From a virus, in the IMG/VR virus record IMGVR_UViG_3300025133_000072, positions 11,721-75,720 of that record: a stretch of 64,000 nt of DNA; one strand, written 5' to 3'. A program made the position numbers and the translations under genes. Of the stretch, positions 1,191-52,767 are shown in pieces (within the stretch, counting starts at the first letter, position 1; each line of letters opens with the position of its first letter). The notes beneath the pieces were generated by a model that worked only from the letters and a program-made list of their open reading frames with translations, was not told where the DNA came from and searched no databases.

Positions 1191-2028
1191 AATCAGAACT
1201 AAAGAAATTGAGTATGCTCCAAGCCCTGATATGTATGGTGATGGATCTGATGGAGCTGTAGGAAATCTATCTTCAGGAAGTACCGAAGCAACTTCAGTAT
1301 CAACTACCAGTACACATGGAATTGGATCTGGGGCTATTGTTCGAAGTCAAGGAAATGTAGCTATTAACGAAGGGGACTCTCTTCAGATACAGCAACAGGA
1401 CGGAATTGCTCGACAATCTGATGCTGAAATAGGTAGTGAGGGAATTGATCCTGATATCATTATGAACATGATAGGAACCAGTTTTATTCCTCCTTTGGAA
1501 AGAGAAGGAACAGATGCTACCGGGGCCTGCGGGGGATGGGTTCAAATCATAGCTGATGGCAATGTTTCCATTAATGGTATTCTCCAAGCTAAGGGGTTGG
1601 CTCCTGCTACTAATGCTGGGGGAGCGGGTGGAGGATTGGTCATAATCGTTTGTTCAGGTTCTTTTGATGGATCTGGGACAATTGATATATCCGGAGCTGT
1701 TGCTGGAGCTACAGCTAATGGGAAAGGTGGGGGCGGAAGTTATTCAGGACGAAGAGGAGGCCACGCAGGTTATGGCGGATCTGGTGGTGGTGCTGGAACA
1801 AATGATAGCGGAGATGCTTCTGCTGGAACAGGTGGGGCTGGATTTGTTGCTGGAAATGCAGGTGGAACAGGGGGACAGACTGACGGAGGAGGCGGAGGTG
1901 GAGGCGGAGCCTTAGCCGAAGCTGGGTCTAACGGAGCTGCTTCCGGAGGAGGCGGAGGAGGCGATGGAGGGTCTAACGAATTAAGTGGGGAAATCTTCGT
2001 TGCTCAAAATCTCCAAAACCAAACTTAG
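1183..2028 (+). CDS. Glycine-rich virion protein, paralogue 2, N-terminal part
   Basis: YGDGSDG start motif. GGWVQIIADGNVSIN and GGHAGYGGSGGGAG align with the preceding gene. Confidence 0.7.
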   Translation: MSKIRTKEIEYAPSPDMYGDGSDGAVGNLSSGSTEATSVSTTSTHGIGSGAIVRSQGNVAINEGDSLQIQQQDGIARQSDAEIGSEGIDPDIIMNMIGTSFIPPLEREGTDATGACGGWVQIIADGNVSINGILQAKGLAPATNAGGAGGGLVIIVCSGSFDGSGTIDISGAVAGATANGKGGGGSYSGRRGGHAGYGGSGGGAGTNDSGDASAGTGGAGFVAGNAGGTGGQTDGGGGGGGGALAEAGSNGAASGGGGGGDGGSNELSGEIFVAQNLQNQT

Positions 2029-2036
2029 GAATCATT

Positions 2037-2900
2037 ATGCATTTATTTGACCCATTTTATAATTCAATTTGTTTTGCTTCTTGTGGAGATAGTGGGAGTG
2101 CTCCTGGTTCTGGGGGAGGCGGAGGGCAAGGATCTTCGGGAGATGGATCTGCTGGAAATGGCTCTTCGGGTGGTTCTGGTGGAACTGGGGGAGGGGCTGC
2201 TGGAAATGGATCAACTTCCGGAGGAGCTACTGGGGGAACAGGGGGCAATGGTGGTGCTGGCGGAGGCGGAGGTGGGGGAGGAGGTAAGTCAACCGGACCC
2301 TCGACATCTGCTGGCGGATCTGGTGGCTCGGCTGCTACTGGAGGAGGAACTGCTGGTGCTGGAGGTAATGCTGGAGGAGGCGGAGGTGGGGGAGGTTCTT
2401 CTCTTACCAATGGGGACACAGGCGGAGGAGCTGGAGGAATAGCTGGATCTGGTGGGGGTGGAGGAGCTGGATACAATGATACTGGTCCCGCTTTAGGAGC
2501 TGGAGGCGATGGAGCTGATGGAGATGCGGATCTTGTTCCTTATGTGAATAAAGATTATTTCAATGGAGGTTCCGGGGGTCAAGGAGGCGGAGGTGGGGGC
2601 GGTCCTGCTGTTTATTCTGAATCTAATGGAACAGTTGGGGCTGGTGGAGGTGGAGGAGCTGGAGAACCTCGTGCTGGAGAGCAAGCTGTTGGATCAGGAA
2701 CCGGAGGAGCTGGGGGAGCTGGATCTAATGGAGCTACAAATGGAAATGGGGGAGCAGGTGGGAATGGTGGGAATGGTGGGGGAGCTACTGGTTGTTTGAT
2801 CGTGCTCTGTACAGCTAATAATTTTACAGGAACGATCAACGGATACAGTCAAATTATTGTAGTTGATGATCCAAAGAAATTAGCTAAACGATACCTTTGA
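2037..2900 (+). CDS. Glycine-rich virion protein, paralogue 2, C-terminal part (-1 frame relative to 1183..2028)
   Basis: Ends GCLIVLCTANNFTGTINGYSQIIVVDDPKKLAKRYL, matching the C-terminus of gene 1..1190. Confidence 0.7.
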   Translation: MHLFDPFYNSICFASCGDSGSAPGSGGGGGQGSSGDGSAGNGSSGGSGGTGGGAAGNGSTSGGATGGTGGNGGAGGGGGGGGGKSTGPSTSAGGSGGSAATGGGTAGAGGNAGGGGGGGGSSLTNGDTGGGAGGIAGSGGGGGAGYNDTGPALGAGGDGADGDADLVPYVNKDYFNGGSGGQGGGGGGGPAVYSESNGTVGAGGGGGAGEPRAGEQAVGSGTGGAGGAGSNGATNGNGGAGGNGGNGGGATGCLIVLCTANNFTGTINGYSQIIVVDDPKKLAKRYL

Positions 2901-2920
2901 TTCGTTGATATAATGATCCC

Positions 2921-3328
2921 ATGGAATTAGATAAGATCCTTCTTCAAAACAAATGGAGCAGAGATCCAAAAGAACATAAGATAGTCTATTCTGCTTCTAT
3001 CCCATCCCATCTTGTATTAATGAAGATTAGAGACTGGTCTATTTTCTTCGCTAAGAAGCTGGCAGGGAAGCAGGAAATTGACTTAGCTTTTAACATAAAC
3101 AAGTGTACGTTAGATTTGGAATATCATGCCGAAAAGGGGATATTACAGGATGGACTCCATCCCTGTGCCGATAAACAAGAAGCCTATGACCGATCGGGCG
3201 GAGGTCATCAAACGTATGGTGAAAATGGGAAAGTTGCCATATATCGACACCGAGGGAGAACATTTCTTGGTAACTTGGAAGAAGTCCGAGAACGAGACAA
3301 AGACGAATCCGGAAGATGTTTGGTCTAA
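2921..3328 (+). CDS. Hypothetical protein, possibly frameshifted near 3115 into the frame of 3126
   Basis: ATG lies 6 nt after TGaTATAAT. About 200 nt overlap with the more protein-like 3126 frame. Confidence 0.4.
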   Translation: MELDKILLQNKWSRDPKEHKIVYSASIPSHLVLMKIRDWSIFFAKKLAGKQEIDLAFNINKCTLDLEYHAEKGILQDGLHPCADKQEAYDRSGGGHQTYGENGKVAIYRHRGRTFLGNLEEVRERDKDESGRCLV

Positions 3329-3443
3329 ATTATCGTTGCCTAGAATGGATGCTTTCTTCACCGATTCTGTGTATGAAGGAAGTCAAGTTTTTGCTCTTAA
3401 TTGTGATACAATAGAATTAGGGCAGTCTGAAGAGGAGAATACA

Positions 3444-3914
3444 ATGGCTGGATTTTCAGGCCGAGCCCAACACATCCGAGTCAACAGCATCCAGAACAAT
3501 CTTACTGACGATCAGAAACAAGAACTTCTGAATTCTGAAAAAGTCCCTACTGCTTCTGAACTCACAAGCAGCGATATTCTGGACGGAACTATCCAAGCTT
3601 ACAAAGTCCTGGTCAAAACGACTTCAGACAAAGTACGAGCAGGGAATTCTGCTACAGTATCTGAGAAGGATGCTGTGGTGGGTGTTTCTTTGGATGGTGG
3701 GATTGACGGAGAAAGAATTACCTATGCCCGGTTCAAAGAAGTTTATATGAAGGCCCATGGATTCGCTGTTCAAAAGCCTCTTTTCTTGAGTGGGTCTACA
3801 GGGGATTTTTCTACGACAGCTCCTACTTCTGGCTTTGTCAAAAAAGTAGGAGTGGTTTTGGATCAAGATCGAATTGCTTTCGATGTCCTTTCCAGTGATT
3901 CCATCAAGTTATGA
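3444..3914 (+). CDS. Putative virion decoration/cement-type beta protein
   Basis: Strong SD GAGGAG at 3432-3437 before an in-frame ATG. VVGVSLDG...PLFLSGSTGDFSTTAPTSGFVKKVG pattern is typical of this phage protein class. Confidence 0.5.
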   Translation: MAGFSGRAQHIRVNSIQNNLTDDQKQELLNSEKVPTASELTSSDILDGTIQAYKVLVKTTSDKVRAGNSATVSEKDAVVGVSLDGGIDGERITYARFKEVYMKAHGFAVQKPLFLSGSTGDFSTTAPTSGFVKKVGVVLDQDRIAFDVLSSDSIKL

Positions 3915-4009
3915 GTTCTGTAGAAACACACATTCCTGGGAAACGAATTAAAATAGATTCCTTTATTCCTGGGAAACGGATCAAGCTAGAAACTGCGGTA
4001 AGGAAATAA
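3911..4009 (+). CDS. 32-aa small protein with an internal IPGKRIK repeat (not in the ORF track)
   Basis: MSSVETHIPGKRIKIDSFIPGKRIKLETAVRK. ATGA overlap upstream and TAATG overlap downstream. Confidence 0.6.
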   Translation: MSSVETHIPGKRIKIDSFIPGKRIKLETAVRK

Positions 4010-4377
4010 TGTCCAATCCAAGATTTGCTATAGGGAGTGTTCCTGAATTTGATTGTGTTTTCAATGACGAGAGCACAGGAACTTTCTTAGATCTCACTGG
4101 AATCGATACAGCTAAGTCCTACCTGTGTTTGTTGAGTTCTGACGGGACAACAGAATTCAAAGGATTATTGAACTCCTCTGCCGTGACAATGCCAGCGGAT
4201 CTCATGGACGGAAACATCATTTTATTGACTAAGAATCTGACCAACTTCACGAACCTGGACGAAGCTGGGAAATGGACTATTGGATTTCGTCTTGAGTATA
4301 CTGCTGGGGCTGTGATCATTTCGGAACAGCATACAGAGTTTGCTGTCCAGGTCATTGTTGCTGTAGATTGTGCCTGA
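4009..4377 (+). CDS. BppU-like (baseplate upper, Ig-like) structural protein
   Basis: LDLTG...DG.I...LDEAGKWTIGFRLEY pattern; structural gene context. Confidence 0.5.
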   Translation: MSNPRFAIGSVPEFDCVFNDESTGTFLDLTGIDTAKSYLCLLSSDGTTEFKGLLNSSAVTMPADLMDGNIILLTKNLTNFTNLDEAGKWTIGFRLEYTAGAVIISEQHTEFAVQVIVAVDCA

Positions 4378-47403: not shown

Positions 47404-47686
47404 TCTGTCAGTAATAAAGGACCCAGCCTTTGTAGCCTATCTCAAGAAGAGTAAAGCTTTCCAGGAGATTCTTATTCATAGTGTTTCCCCGAATGTGATT
47501 ATAGCTTGTGTAGATATGCTCCCTTCGACCACTGTTGATGAGTGGTTGAAGGACTTCAAGAAGAAGAAAACTAAAACGGAAACTTCAGGTAAAGTTATTC
47601 CTGTGGACTTTACAAGTTCGAATGTTTGAGCCTCTTTTTTGTATTCTATTGGACATTCTCTCTTATTATCCATTACACTTTTATTA

Positions 47687-48415
47687 ATGCCAGCACGACA
47701 AGCACGTAAGTCGAAAGGCTCTTCTAGGATTCGGAAACGAAGACAAATAGAGCCAGAAGAACCTTCTGTAGATCTAGAAAAGAACACTACAGTCAGTACA
47801 GCTATCTCCATTCTTTCAGACCCAACGAATCTGGATGAGAAGGTAGCCAGCTTGCTTTCGACGACTTCTATTGGTATCAAGGTCTTATTTGCGGGGATAG
47901 CACAGCAGACTTCCTCTACCCTGAGTTCTATGTTCATGACATTGGATTCTATGGAGAAGGAATTATCTACTGACAAGTTTCAACAAGACTTACCAAAATC
48001 TCAGAAGATTCAACTTTACAGAACCATACGAGATACCTTCCAAGATAAGTTGGAGTTCCTCAGACAGGTTATGGAAAAGGGGGATCACGATACTTTCAAG
48101 GATGAAATTATGCTGGCTCTGAGATCAGTACAGGGGACAGAGGAACATCAACAGGACGTAGATCATCATGATATAACTACCCTGGAAGAATTTCCGGATA
48201 TGGAAAAATCCATTCTGTCGGATTTAAGAAACATTATCCAGGACAATGCTCTCCCGGCCCCTAAGAAAGAAGATCCTCCATGTCCTCCCAAAAAAGCCAA
48301 AAAACCCCCATCCAAGAAGTCTTCTCGATCCTCGACCCGCTCTACCAAAAATACCCAAAAGTCGAAGTCCACAAAGTCATCGGCAAGCAGTTTGGTTATG
48401 AACGGGTCCCCGTAG
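47687..48415 (+). CDS. Putative terminase small subunit or packaging-associated protein
   Basis: Helical protein immediately upstream of, and overlapping, terL; called by position only. Confidence 0.4.
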   Translation: MPARQARKSKGSSRIRKRRQIEPEEPSVDLEKNTTVSTAISILSDPTNLDEKVASLLSTTSIGIKVLFAGIAQQTSSTLSSMFMTLDSMEKELSTDKFQQDLPKSQKIQLYRTIRDTFQDKLEFLRQVMEKGDHDTFKDEIMLALRSVQGTEEHQQDVDHHDITTLEEFPDMEKSILSDLRNIIQDNALPAPKKEDPPCPPKKAKKPPSKKSSRSSTRSTKNTQKSKSTKSSASSLVMNGSP

Positions 48416-50346
48416 ATATAGATGAGTTCATTGCCAGTGATCATTATTTAGGTCGCTTGTTTAATCAGAAGCAATCTGGAAGATGGGATCAGAGAGACTC
48501 AGAGGAATTCAGAGAGTGCTGGAGGCACCACTTACACAAGATTTACCCCAATCCTTTTTTTAGTCCTTTCCACGAGGTTATTCTCACTGGAGGAATTGGA
48601 ACAGGAAAGACCACAGGGGGAAATATCATAGGGGCTAAAGACATTGAGAATATTCAATGCATGGGCAATCCTCATGCTCGTTTTGGATTAGATCCCACAA
48701 CCGTTCTGGTCTTTGCTGTGTTCTCCGCTACGTTGAAACAAGTTCAGGATGTTGCCTTTCAACAGATCATGGGATTTTTTGATGTTAGTCCTTACTTCAA
48801 AGACTTGAGAAAAAGATCTTTGGCAGAATTTAAAAAGAAGGTATCCGAACAAGATCCCATGACACAGAAGAGACAGAAAGCTCTTCAAACATTGTTTCCC
48901 AAGAGGACTGATATTTCTGTGGGCTCTGTTGGGGGACATGGATTAGGGAAGGCTATTTTTGCTGCTGAGATTGATGAGTCTAATTTTGGGGGAAGACTGG
49001 GACAGGCTAAGGATACCTACACTACTCTAAGAAGGAGAATCCAGACTCGTTTTATGGAAGCGGGTGGAGGGCTCCCAGGACACATGATTTTGATATCTTC
49101 TAGAAAAGATGACACTGATTTTCTAGATGAGCATATTGAGAAGGTCAAAGATTCCAAAGGGGTCTATGTTGTAGAGATGCCGATTTGGGAAGCCAAGCCC
49201 CAAGTATATTCAGGCCATTCTTTCCCTGTGTTTGCAGGAGACACTACGACAGATCCTTTTATTATCGATGAGAGCAACATAGCTGATAGGGCTACGTTAG
49301 ATGAGTCCAATATCATTTATTTCCCTGAAGAGCACCGAGAGGACTGCTTACAAGACATTTACGGGGCTCTAAAGGATTTGGCTGGTCGCAGTACCATTAC
49401 GAGTAAAAAGCTCATTACTAAGCCAGCTCTGTTGGAACAGGCTATGTATTTCCCCATCATCACATCCCAGCAAGTCATTCGTCTCTCCTTAAAAGGTTCT
49501 GATAGGTTGATTGATTACGTGTATTCACATCTCCTGGGACAGAGGGCAGATCCACAGGCTCCTAGATTCATTCATTGTGACTTTTCCCTCACAGGCGATA
49601 GGACTGGGGTAGCTTGTTCGTATAACAAAGGATTCAAGAAGATTGAGCGTTATGATCCTTTGTCTGGAACCTATAAGGTTTTTTCAGAGCCCACTATAAA
49701 AACAGAATGGGTGATCTATCTTCAGTCTCGTCCTGGGGAAGAAATCCCTCTGTTCAAGATTTTGGAATTTATTGTGGATCTCAGGGATTCCTATAAATAT
49801 CATATTGGATTGCTTTCTACTGACGGATTTCAATCAGCCGATTTTAGACAACGAGCAGAGATGCAGCATTTTAAAACAGATGTTTTGTCTCTAGATAAAT
49901 CGAAAGACCCTTACATTAAATTTAGGATCATGGTGAATGATGGTAGGTGGGAGGGTCCGAGACATCCTCTTTTATTGAGAGAGTTTGTAGGGCTCAGGGA
50001 TACAGGGAAGAAATTTGATCACGGAACGGATAAGGAGGCTTGTTTTGTGGGGGAGACAGAGGTTCGTATTAGAAAAAAGGAGGGGGAATATAATATAGCA
50101 ATGGAGGCTCTCTCTAAGGAGGTTTTTGCCGAGATTTCTGTTTTGTCTTATGATCAAAGTAAAGGGACTTTTTGTTTTTCTAAATTAAACAGGTGTTGGG
50201 AGTCCAAAATTGTGGAGGAGTTGATCGAAATAGAGTTGGATGAGGGGACAGTTTTCAGATGTACTCCGGATCATTTAATTTTGACTAGAAGAGGATATGT
50301 GCAAGCTCAGGAGCTTACGTTAGAGGATGAATTAATTAGTGCTTAA
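48280..50346 (+). CDS. terL: Terminase large subunit, N-fragment + N-intein
   Basis: GGIGTGKT, IDESNF, IHCDFSLTGD, STDGFQS, KKFDH, then CFVGETEV...FRCTPDHLILT.RGYVQAQEL. Confidence 0.9.
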   Translation: MSSQKSQKTPIQEVFSILDPLYQKYPKVEVHKVIGKQFGYERVPVDIDEFIASDHYLGRLFNQKQSGRWDQRDSEEFRECWRHHLHKIYPNPFFSPFHEVILTGGIGTGKTTGGNIIGAKDIENIQCMGNPHARFGLDPTTVLVFAVFSATLKQVQDVAFQQIMGFFDVSPYFKDLRKRSLAEFKKKVSEQDPMTQKRQKALQTLFPKRTDISVGSVGGHGLGKAIFAAEIDESNFGGRLGQAKDTYTTLRRRIQTRFMEAGGGLPGHMILISSRKDDTDFLDEHIEKVKDSKGVYVVEMPIWEAKPQVYSGHSFPVFAGDTTTDPFIIDESNIADRATLDESNIIYFPEEHREDCLQDIYGALKDLAGRSTITSKKLITKPALLEQAMYFPIITSQQVIRLSLKGSDRLIDYVYSHLLGQRADPQAPRFIHCDFSLTGDRTGVACSYNKGFKKIERYDPLSGTYKVFSEPTIKTEWVIYLQSRPGEEIPLFKILEFIVDLRDSYKYHIGLLSTDGFQSADFRQRAEMQHFKTDVLSLDKSKDPYIKFRIMVNDGRWEGPRHPLLLREFVGLRDTGKKFDHGTDKEACFVGETEVRIRKKEGEYNIAMEALSKEVFAEISVLSYDQSKGTFCFSKLNRCWESKIVEELIEIELDEGTVFRCTPDHLILTRRGYVQAQELTLEDELISA
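50041..50346 (+). mobile_element. Split intein, N-half (101 aa)
   Basis: Block A CFVGETEV, block B TPDH, stop TAA at 50344. Confidence 0.88.
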
Positions 50347-50711
50347 GCTAGATCGGTATCTATATAAATACCCAAGTATATCTGATCATTTGGATGAGAT
50401 TATTTTTTTGTGCACAAAGGAGGGCTTGTCTGTAAGAGAAATATCGAAGGGGTTAGATTCGAATGTGCATCATGCCGTTATACAAAGAATTCTTAAGATG
50501 TTAGGCTTGCTGAGAAGTAAAGCAGAGACTTGATTTAGATATACCTCTTCCTTCTCAGCTTCGAGATAAATTGAGGCAAGGCGGGTTTTCACAGGTTGCT
50601 CAGGTTTTTCGATGGATTGGTAGATCCAGGAATTATGGGATTGCTTGGATAGAAAAGATTTATAGGCAAAAATACACAGAATTTTATAGGGAGCATTTTA
50701 ATGAAGATTAG
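50339..50711 (+). pseudogene. Interposed HTH/endonuclease-remnant gene, broken at about 50530
   Basis: GLSVREISK...IQRILKMLGLLRS in one frame; DLDIPLPSQLRD...REHFNED* in the next frame. Confidence 0.5.
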
Positions 50712-50973
50712 ATCAATTCAAAGAGTTTTTTGTTCTCCCACACCTGTTTATGATTTAGAAACAGAAGAATTCCATAATTTTGCTTTAGGATGTGGTGTGA
50801 TTGTTCACAATTCGAAAGATGGTGCTGATGCCGTGGGAGGGTCTGTGTATCAAGCAGCTACTTCCGATTCTCAGCCACAGGTATACGCTGATGATTTAAT
50901 AGCTCAAATGGAAGCCGAACTTCAGAGAGGTTCTGAGGGTGGTCTTTTGTCTGATTTGTTTGATGATGATTAG
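50701..50973 (+). CDS. Split intein C-half (37 aa) + terminase C-terminal extein
   Basis: MKIRSI...VYDLETEEFHNFALGCGVIVHN|SKDGADAV; SD AGGGAG. Confidence 0.9.
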   Translation: MKIRSIQRVFCSPTPVYDLETEEFHNFALGCGVIVHNSKDGADAVGGSVYQAATSDSQPQVYADDLIAQMEAELQRGSEGGLLSDLFDDD

Positions 50974-51060
50974 GATTGATTTGCTTTGTTTTGTTTTTCG
51001 CCGTTTTCCCCTGGAATCTGGTACAATAGAATAGGGTAGTAGAATAGAGAATATACTGCT

Positions 51061-52767
51061 GTGTTTGCCTTATTAGATCCCCGAACCTACTATCAATCCT
51101 TCCAAAAATTATTCCAGAGGGATGATCCTTGGTTAAAGCAGATCACGAACGCTGTTGATCAGGCAAAACTTGAAACCAGAGAAACAACAGCCTTCAAGAT
51201 CTATCAGACTTATCAGGATCTAGCAGGTTTGATCGCTGATCTTAATCCCTTTATTGATTATTATCTTGTAGATCTGATCTTAAACACTCATAAGGATCAG
51301 ACACTTTCAGAAGACCCCTCTTCCGGGAAAATGTTCACGATCGAAATAGATTCCAAAGCTCAGAACGCTTCTAAAATCCAGAAAAGAATTGATCGTCTTT
51401 ATGAGGTGATTGATCTGGAGGCTGTTTTAGCTGATGTTCTTTCGGACGCTATGTTCTGGGGCCAGTATCCTTTGAGGATTATGTTTCAGAAGACTGGAAC
51501 AGAAAAAGGGATTGTAGACCTGCTTGATGTAGTGCAGCCTGGATCATTAGTCTCTATTCATCGTAAGCACCTTCCTTCTATTGTGTTTGAAAAAACAGGC
51601 AGGGAAATTAGGACGTTCAATCCTTGGGAATACTGGACCTTGGATATGTCGATGAGAAAACTTATGATCGAAAGCCAGTATGGGTGGACTAAAATTCCTT
51701 ATCACCTTCGAGTAGGCCGACCTATGTTTGCTAATCTCCTTCCTCAGATTCGAGATCTGATGTCCTTGGAGATTATCGATGTAGCCAGAGAGCTTGCTGA
51801 GCTATCCCGGAATTCGCTTGTGAATATCTCAGGTCCTGATGGATTGGATTTGGACAAGCAGAAGATCTATACCACTTATTATGAGAAGAAGATCAATCGT
51901 AAAGTAGGCGACCTCACTACCATGTCTCCTCAAGCTATTGAGAAGATCATCCGGAAATCCGGAGAGATGAAAGCCATCATCCGAGACTCCAGTAAGGGGG
52001 AAGTGAACCCCATATCTCTATCACAGGCTCATCATGGAGAGAATAGGATAGATAAGATCAAGGATCGAAGAGAAGCCATTTGTACCAGTACAGGAACCCC
52101 TTTTGAGGTTGTGTTCGGTCAAACAGATGTTTCTGCTCGTGGAGGCATTCGACAATTTGCCAGATTTCAAAAACGTATAGCTGCGAATCACAAGGCTATC
52201 GGTTGGGCTATTAAGCGATTGATAGCTATCGATACTGCCATGGCTGGGATTGAGATCAGGAACTGGAAAGATATCCAGGTAAATTTCTCTAACTTCATTG
52301 ATGCAGAAGAGCTTCAGACTTTAGAGGCTATAGATACTAAGTTCGCTATGTATACAACGGCGGTTCAGTATATGAATGAGCTTGGAGACAGTTCGGTGTT
52401 ATCGCCTTATGTGAAAAAGGATAAAGCTGCGGAGTTCATGCAAACTCTCATGGGTGGAATGAAAGGAGCAGCGGAGATTTTAGACCCAGCTAATCCAGAG
52501 GAGCCTGAAGGAGAACCAGGAGGAGATTTTGGAGGACCGGGTAATTTTGGGAATCAACAGCAGCAACCACAAGATGCCCCAGCAGCAGAGCCCCAGCCAG
52601 CCCCAGGACCTTCCCCAGAAAAAGAACCAGAGGTGACAACCGAGCCCGAAGCTAAGCCAGAGCCTGAAGAAGAAAAGGCTAAGAAAGAGCCCGAAGAGAA
52701 AACTCCGAAAGAGGACGAAAAGGCCAAACCAAAAAAGAAGCCAAAAACTAAGCCTAAGTCCAAATGA
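51061..52767 (+). CDS. Portal protein
   Basis: Follows terL; 568 aa with T4 gp20-like layout and a low-complexity C-tail. Confidence 0.75.
   Translation: MFALLDPRTYYQSFQKLFQRDDPWLKQITNAVDQAKLETRETTAFKIYQTYQDLAGLIADLNPFIDYYLVDLILNTHKDQTLSEDPSSGKMFTIEIDSKAQNASKIQKRIDRLYEVIDLEAVLADVLSDAMFWGQYPLRIMFQKTGTEKGIVDLLDVVQPGSLVSIHRKHLPSIVFEKTGREIRTFNPWEYWTLDMSMRKLMIESQYGWTKIPYHLRVGRPMFANLLPQIRDLMSLEIIDVARELAELSRNSLVNISGPDGLDLDKQKIYTTYYEKKINRKVGDLTTMSPQAIEKIIRKSGEMKAIIRDSSKGEVNPISLSQAHHGENRIDKIKDRREAICTSTGTPFEVVFGQTDVSARGGIRQFARFQKRIAANHKAIGWAIKRLIAIDTAMAGIEIRNWKDIQVNFSNFIDAEELQTLEAIDTKFAMYTTAVQYMNELGDSSVLSPYVKKDKAAEFMQTLMGGMKGAAEILDPANPEEPEGEPGGDFGGPGNFGNQQQQPQDAPAAEPQPAPGPSPEKEPEVTTEPEAKPEPEEEKAKKEPEEKTPKEDEKAKPKKKPKTKPKSK

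Follow-up and report, generated by a model that had tools for sequence, protein, structure and literature searches.

How can a phage obtain an intact large terminase subunit (TerL) when the single TerL gene found in its genome record is divided between two separate open reading frames (ORFs)? The question is raised by a 64,000-nucleotide stretch of DNA (hereafter the window), which corresponds to positions 11721-75720 of the linear 75.7-kb IMG/VR record IMGVR_UViG_3300025133_000072, and in which the terminase reading frame is interrupted by the two halves of an intein. The window sequence is present in marine metagenome runs and its source is an uncultured marine tailed phage; a scan of viral contigs with the N-terminal TerL ORF returned no close relatives of this phage, and the best homologue of its TerL is a fragment, 53% identical. 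According to our analysis the window holds a genuine, canonically split intein of the class-1 type in the one TerL gene of the record. Judging from the sequence we consider it highly probable that this sole TerL is completed by protein trans-splicing, and packaging of the phage DNA would presumably depend on that reaction.

The first of the two ORFs (48280-50346) encodes 688 amino acids, namely TerL residues 1-587 followed by a 101-residue N-intein (IntN), and the second (50701-50973), starting with ATG, encodes 90, which are divided into a 37-residue C-intein (IntC) and a 53-residue TerL tail. The host protein belongs to the TerL family, having an N-terminal P-loop ATPase and nuclease motifs in its C-terminal part and being homologous to annotated members. 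In tblastn searches about 80% of the N-terminal ORF was aligned with annotated TerL proteins from many phages at 27-35% identity (E 1e-51 to 7e-95), and among them those of Escherichia, Rhizobium, Vibrio and Maribacter phages with 31-35%. The PHROG match of the window protein to TerL was weak (E 0.0025), and no solved terminase structure could be reached by sequence, either from the intein-less homologue P0004 or from a 15-sequence profile.

Intein-less metagenomic homologues of 615-642 residues define the insertion point (marked here by ↓), as they read without interruption ...FDHPPKG↓SKDGSDA..., ...DHERDG↓SKDGADAV... and similar sequences, and DH..G↓SKDG.D is likewise unbroken in P0003, P0004 and P0006. 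When 15 such homologues were aligned, the His of DH and both Asp of SKDxxD were invariant, and the Ser and Lys nearly so. Because the intein-less relatives read across DHxxxG↓SKDxxD without a break, the junction in the window is exact, and the two exteins together (587+53=640 residues) match the length of these homologues. The intein is placed exactly within the most conserved C-terminal motif of TerL. Taking this invariance together with general knowledge of TerL nucleases, it would be logical to suggest that SKDxxD carries the last (third) catalytic Asp of the nuclease.

The inserted sequence has all the residues expected of class-1 splicing, which are Cys1, the block B residues Thr and His, the block F Asp, the terminal His-Asn and Ser+1. 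The first 37 residues of the second ORF, MKIRSIQRVFCSPTPVYDLETEEFHNFALGCGVIVHN, are followed directly by SKDGADAVGG.... In an alignment of 23 relatives the block B Thr (T75) is nearly invariant and the His (H78) is invariant, and the block F and G columns PVYDLE..FHNFAL..GVIVHN↓S are invariant in comparison with Streptococcus phage vB_SagM-GXN1 (GXN1) and with P0023. Taken separately, the halves remain below the threshold of the Pfam Intein_splicing family (IntN 22 bits over positions 20-93, IntC 23 bits over positions 122-155 of 155); read through in their common frame they reach 48.3 bits with PF14890 over positions 20-155, the curated cut-off being 35.8. A search with IntN among 1.84 billion representatives of 50%-identity clusters returned 786 intein-bearing proteins at E<=0.001, and a large number of them share its end point. 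These matches, together with a read-through score above the cut-off, put the pattern beyond chance. The identity of IntN to any representative does not exceed 55%, or 46% when the entire IntN is covered.

Comparison with solved structures points in the same direction. Closest to IntN comes 8ubs, the split intein NrdJ-1 (E 2.5e-7; 31% identity to NrdJ-1), and IntC stands in register with the IntC chain of Npu DnaE (4qfq_B), which has the same length of 37 residues and is aligned over residues 3-37, in a weak match (E 0.19). An AlphaFold2 model of the read-through sequence has a predicted local distance difference test (pLDDT) of 88-96 for IntN and of 93-96 for the first 20 IntC residues, which are docked on IntN. 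All 49 listed matches of this model at E<=0.001 in a Foldseek search of the PDB are intein or HINT folds (8ubs with E 4e-7), and some of the alignments cover both intein halves, with TMt up to 0.72, so that the two parts are predicted to form a HINT fold together. Net charge is -8 for IntN and +3 for the first 12 residues of IntC. The G+C content amounts to 0.39 in IntN, 0.37 in the gap between the intein ORFs and 0.32 in IntC (0.16 at third codon positions), compared with 0.43 and 0.46 in the exteins; the lower G+C of the intein element fits a horizontal acquisition, the stretches being short.

A preliminary description, made from the letters of the window, had already read here a TerL gene fractured by a naturally split intein, with the C-terminal half on an ORF having its own Shine-Dalgarno site; all its coordinates and residues for both ORFs are right, and the exact junction, the read-through score and the single TerL of the record bear this reading out. 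It further proposed a new Cys1/Ser+1 pair, which holds for the sequence and fails for the type of pairing, as the split inteins gp41-1, NrdJ-1 and IMPDH-1 have the same one.

Scans with the C-terminal ORF as a query yielded 50 viral and 13 metagenome loci and demonstrated that the TerL nuclease-motif site is widely occupied by inteins. The same-site pattern, K/R-V/I-D-H-x3-G↓C ... H-N↓S-K-D, is found, along with IntN and IntC blocks related to those of the window, in phage GXN1, in IMG/VR loci L005-L042 and in metagenome loci L056-L066. Continuous inteins at this site number 37, namely 15 mini-inteins of 118-153 residues and 22 inteins of 294-384 residues with an endonuclease domain; five loci are split (GXN1, L016, L037, L032 and L006), and P0086 and P0155 are further stand-alone ORFs in which the N-terminal part of TerL is followed by an IntN ending at the same point. 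In the papers searched, an intein at the nuclease motif of TerL was nowhere described.

The nearest relative of the window intein, with 61% identity over 84 residues, is the split intein of L006. Its IntN stops at ...LQLDDQLV, a 58-nt spacer including GAGGAG and holding no gene follows, and its IntC starts at TTG and reads MKLRSIKRV..., so that it is split at the same residue as the window intein. Over 85 codons of both halves the proportion of synonymous differences (pS) between the two loci is 0.75, which is saturated, and that of nonsynonymous differences (pN) is 0.32; the portal-like proteins encoded downstream are 28% identical. Saturated pS with low pN in two distant phages sharing the split means that both halves are kept by purifying selection, and we see in this shared selection the best indirect evidence that trans-splicing may be at work. 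Since the split is real DNA, as discussed below, and is kept by selection, completion of TerL by trans-splicing, which the preliminary description had also proposed, appears to be the best reading. The tree of the splicing domains is weakly resolved (3 of 24 branches starred) and too weak for counting independent splitting events.

We propose the following course of events. The intein, sitting in the nuclease motif ...DHxxxG↓SKDxxD... and broken at the canonical position of the homing endonuclease, would be expressed from one late transcript as two polypeptides, TerL(1-587)-IntN of 587 and 101 residues and IntC-TerL tail of 37 and 53 residues, the latter from its own ribosome-binding site. The acidic IntN (-8) and the basic head of IntC (+3) would associate and fold as one HINT domain; a thioester would be formed at Cys1 and attacked by Ser+1, Asn37 would cyclise, and a peptide bond would join Ala587 to Ser+1. 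The product would be a TerL of 640 residues, joined as ...DKEA-SKDGADAV... and with its motif restored. The gap between the halves would supply no nuclease, and its two small helix-turn-helix (HTH)-like ORFs would be either what remains of a lost homing-endonuclease gene or genes in their own right.

Features of the split terminase locus (window positions) and of the split same-site relatives (positions in their own records)
Feature	Position	Strand	Description
TerL N-extein, 587 aa	48280..50040	+	Walker A GGIGTGKT; ends ...KKFDHGTDKEA; matched by tblastn to annotated TerL
N-intein (IntN), 101 aa	50041..50346	+	Cys1 at 50041-50043; block A CFVGETEV; block B RCTPDH; ends ...LTLEDELISA, TAA 50344-50346
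64-aa ORF, frame 2	50339..50533	+	GTG start overlaps the IntN stop; HTH-like
46-aa ORF, frame 3	50571..50711	+	TTG start, in a frame open over 58 codons; overlaps the IntC start at its end
Shine-Dalgarno site AGGGAG	50688..50693	+	7 nt 5' of the IntC ATG; read from the sequence
C-intein (IntC), 37 aa	50701..50811	+	MKIRSIQRV...; block F PVYDLE..FHNFAL; block G GVIVHN
TerL C-extein, 53 aa and stop codon	50812..50973	+	Begins with Ser+1, SKDGADAVGG...
L002, Streptococcus phage vB_SagM-GXN1 (PQ819873.1)	1345-4306		IntN with HTH modules and a Vsr/DUF559-like domain as fusion partners; separate 124-aa ORF with IntC and SKD...
L016			Free-standing HNH-like and AP2-like ORFs between the halves, judged by eye
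L037			Stop within the HNH domain
L032			IntN fused to two HTH modules, without nuclease
L006	1-501 of IMGVR_UViG_3300029687_000169 (same contig as L055)		Split; N-part truncated by the contig end

The gap between the intein ORFs (50347-50700) comprises 354 nt, and the preliminary description had placed in it a small broken HTH-bearing gene and proposed that the invading endonuclease has decayed. The HTH call has two sources: the 64-aa ORF has a sub-threshold match to Pfam HTH_38 (E 0.019; 15 bits, with the cut-off at 27), and structural leads in the ESM Atlas (template modelling scores 0.57-0.66) relate its predicted fold to HTH_7 and HTH_23 and to clusters of phage homing endonucleases. A second HTH is conceivable in the 46-aa ORF and stands unsupported there, with no match in Pfam or PHROGs. 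That the gene is broken is interpretation. The decay of an endonuclease gained no support from similarity, as the gap ORFs showed no significant likeness to nucleases, to the GXN1 element, to the L032 tail or to a hidden Markov model (HMM) of the 22 same-site endonuclease domains.

This negative outcome rests on several searches. Pfam, PHROGs, tblastn against phages, the set of 5.8 billion proteins and the endonuclease HMM all detected no nuclease domain in the gap; the HMM, applied to all six-frame ORFs of the window, gave no match there, the best tblastn values of the gap ORFs against phages were E 1-4, and nothing was found in the 5.8-billion set, where longer proteins were considered. BLASTP of the two gap ORFs with the GXN1 element gave E 8.3 and 0.023 in single comparisons, the latter being the one marginal match of the 46-aa ORF, to the last HTH of that element; when the GXN1 and L032 tails were compared with the whole window by tblastn, the gap was not ranked and this match was not recovered. 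The gap DNA resembles the 58-nt spacer of L006 at the level of chance (123 of 300 shuffles score as high). The patterns YLY..SISD and SRNY..W, which by eye appeared to be shared, were statistically unsupported and were not used. By analogy the decay is plausible, as relatives carry endonucleases at this place (Vsr/DUF559-like in GXN1, HNH with AP2-like ORFs in L016, a stop-broken HNH in L037), L032 carries two HTH modules and L006 carries nothing; from their position, and by analogy with L032, the gap ORFs may be DNA-binding parts left over from a homing endonuclease that was lost. It is equally possible that they are functional genes of small size.

The latter explanation, according to which the 64-aa ORF (perhaps also the 46-aa one) is no debris and serves, for example, as a DNA-binding regulator or a domesticated targeting module, while a free-standing nuclease of the kind seen in relatives was never present or has been replaced, seems to us possible, if somewhat doubtful. 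The 64-aa ORF is intact and identical on three contigs, GAGGA lies 11 nt upstream of its GTG in a layout that permits translational coupling with IntN, whose stop it overlaps, its predicted HTH fold would suit such a role, and it has no detectable homology to the same-site endonucleases. It also has no relatives among phages or in the 5.8-billion set, which makes its conservation not demonstrable, and the gap of the nearest split relative, L006, is empty. Two short ORFs in different frames with overlapping ends have the look of a frameshifted remnant, and in L032 the element at this site has been reduced to a pair of HTH modules that lacks a nuclease. A 12-nt inverted repeat at 50509-50559 (GCTGAGAAGTAA / TTCCTTCTCAGC, 92% complementary, 27-nt loop) brackets the stop of the 64-aa ORF and is not followed by a run of T.

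Completion of TerL by trans-splicing has to be weighed against a terminase that is simply dead, with a split intein that no longer splices and a contig derived from a defective or decaying phage genome. Several points weigh against our preferred reading, and two of them would speak for this alternative: the residue at position -1 is an atypical Ala in the window and Gly in nearly all same-site relatives, and the last 17 residues of IntC, including blocks F and G, have a pLDDT of 35-60 in the AlphaFold2 model, the low confidence there coming probably from a poor input alignment. Besides, the splicing itself is deduced from sequence alone; a second terminase gene may lie in the remaining 14% of a record that is an estimated 86% complete; and our read evidence consists of assembled Logan contigs with a depth of 2-8x, from runs some of which may share one sampling campaign. 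On the other side, all the catalytic residues listed above are intact, as are the IntC ribosome site and its ATG, the invariant SKDxxD is retained in the C-extein, pN lies far under the saturated pS in both halves, and an identical sequence in four marine runs is what one would expect of a replicating phage. We regard a dead terminase as very unlikely.

A sequencing or assembly error hiding a single uninterrupted intein, whether it has an endonuclease domain or lacks one, is a natural suspicion for a metagenome assembly in which both halves lie in the same frame (frame 1). Past the TAA of the N-terminal ORF, eight further frame-1 stops follow before IntC, and no single frame is open across the gap. 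Logan contigs from four marine runs of four studies have 0 substitutions and 0 indels on 49700-51300; two runs span the TAA at 50344, two span the stop at 50531-50533, and one (X1) spans the IntC start, the contig of a second run (X2) beginning shortly after this start, at 50704. Three public contigs (ENA, JGI) with lengths of 25.9, 54.8 and 75.7 kb carry the same ORFs. The window IntN ends where P0165, P0117 and P0173 end and where many other split IntN ORFs do, IntC has a ribosome site and a start codon of its own, and L006 is broken at the same point. The break is real DNA and no assembly error, and indel errors whose correction would restore one contiguous intein ORF, considered in the preliminary description, are not what the contigs contain; we give this suspicion practically no weight. 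Repair or recoding at the level of RNA, by a self-splicing intron, ribosomal bypass or a variant genetic code, is scarcely credible even though the halves share a frame and the 354-nt insert has the size of small group I introns, because Rfam returned 0 families at E<=1 over 50100-50900, the fold of the gap is no better than that of shuffled sequence (z -0.07), no single reassignment could open a frame with all three kinds of stop, and IntC has a canonical ribosome site and start. Direct repeats flanking the gap were likewise not seen. The stretch between the two ORFs also revealed no terminator-like site, and both are probably on one transcript.

The state of the window can be placed in a broader picture, to which we attach a low probability. 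The DHxxxG↓SKD site of TerL would host a large and apparently undescribed intein family, in which the split state devoid of an endonuclease, as in the window and L006, would be a stable and selected end-point rather than a way-station to loss; trans-splicing might then act as a post-translational gate, with the nuclease active only after both halves have accumulated, and the HTH mini-ORFs would perhaps be domesticated parts of this control.

In 2009 Dassa, London, Stoddard, Schueler-Furman and Pietrokovski reported, from ocean metagenomes, fractured genes in which an endonuclease gene intervenes between the halves of a split intein (PMC2677866), so the remark in the preliminary description that such phage genes are already known is right. 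The loci of that study are gp41-1 to gp41-8, NrdJ-1, IMPDH-1 and NrdA-2; their IntN have 88-105 and their IntC 33-54 residues, the break lies between the N4 and C2 motifs, and opposite charges on the interacting parts are a described pattern of split inteins (PMC2677866). The window resembles them in that the intein, itself broken where an endonuclease would be inserted, interrupts a conserved and essential gene of the phage within a conserved motif, and both of its halves, with 101 and 37 residues, are inside these ranges. Opposite local charges, the marine metagenomic phage source and separate ORFs with a second translation start of their own are shared as well. The host gene is different, being TerL cut at the nuclease motif, and in place of the free-standing homing-endonuclease gene the window has two HTH-like mini-ORFs. 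In this last respect it is comparable to gp41-7, a fractured locus without an endonuclease gene (PMC2677866), as the window and L006 keep a split intein after, or without, such a gene; the host protein and the intein family differ from those of gp41-7, and of the gap the window retains 354 bp, with its two small ORFs, and L006 58 bp.

Split inteins in large-terminase genes of phages are not without precedent either. The GOS 'Terminase' locus has an atypical split with a C-part of 122 residues (PMC2677866), and GOS-TerL and AceL-TerL are atypically split terminase inteins (PMC10189870, PMC7891396). The window intein, like these two, is naturally split in a phage TerL gene; compared by the position of the split, however, they are broken near the N-terminus, with a very short IntN and a long IntC, whereas the window has the canonical arrangement of 101 and 37 residues. 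The nucleophiles of GOS-TerL are Ser1/Cys+1 (PMC10189870), in contrast to Cys1/Ser+1 in the window. Among mycobacteriophages, Kelley et al. (2016) described TerL inteins at seven insertion sites, all of them in the ATPase domain and none split, and argued that splicing is required for TerL function (PMC5050341). The window intein also lies in an active-site motif of TerL but, unlike theirs, in the C-terminal nuclease motif, and it is split, as most of the TerL inteins at its own site are not.

The fractured-gene arrangement is known and frequent in phages, and the window adds another example; it leaves the knowledge of inteins or of packaging unchanged, and the sequence of the window alone opens no long-standing question. 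What it does contribute is a natural, canonically split Cys1/Ser+1 pair, distant in sequence from the characterised ones, which can be considered as a candidate orthogonal tool for protein ligation. Moreover, the window and its relatives show every proposed stage of intein evolution at one site of one essential phage gene, from inteins with an endonuclease domain and mini-inteins to split inteins with a free endonuclease gene, with remnants, and with an empty gap.

Among these relatives GXN1 deserves attention as a cultured phage. Its terminase is in at least three pieces, none of which is annotated in a record of 40 features, and its 868-aa ORF opens with the C-terminal half of a further split intein (...VVSHN↓CALMDEIEF, in the Walker B region) and closes with the IntN, HTH modules and Vsr/DUF559-like domain given in the table. 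This makes GXN1 a culturable system for testing the trans-splicing of TerL by several inteins. A second, continuous intein of about 310 residues (...DDYPEL↓CVTGDT...VVHN↓SSALDYY) was observed in L009 (1398-2337) and L010 (2392-3331), where its host is the next gene downstream of the TerL that contains an intein.

The surroundings of the TerL gene in the window include an ORF at 47639-48415, encoding 258 residues with a Lys/Ser/Pro-rich tail, which shares, in a different frame, the initial 136 nt of the terL ORF and may be the small terminase or no gene at all. Two genes upstream of terL, the ORF at 46705-47403 matches phrog_1491, annotated 'tail fiber protein' (E 4.7e-23), which is unusual company for a terminase.

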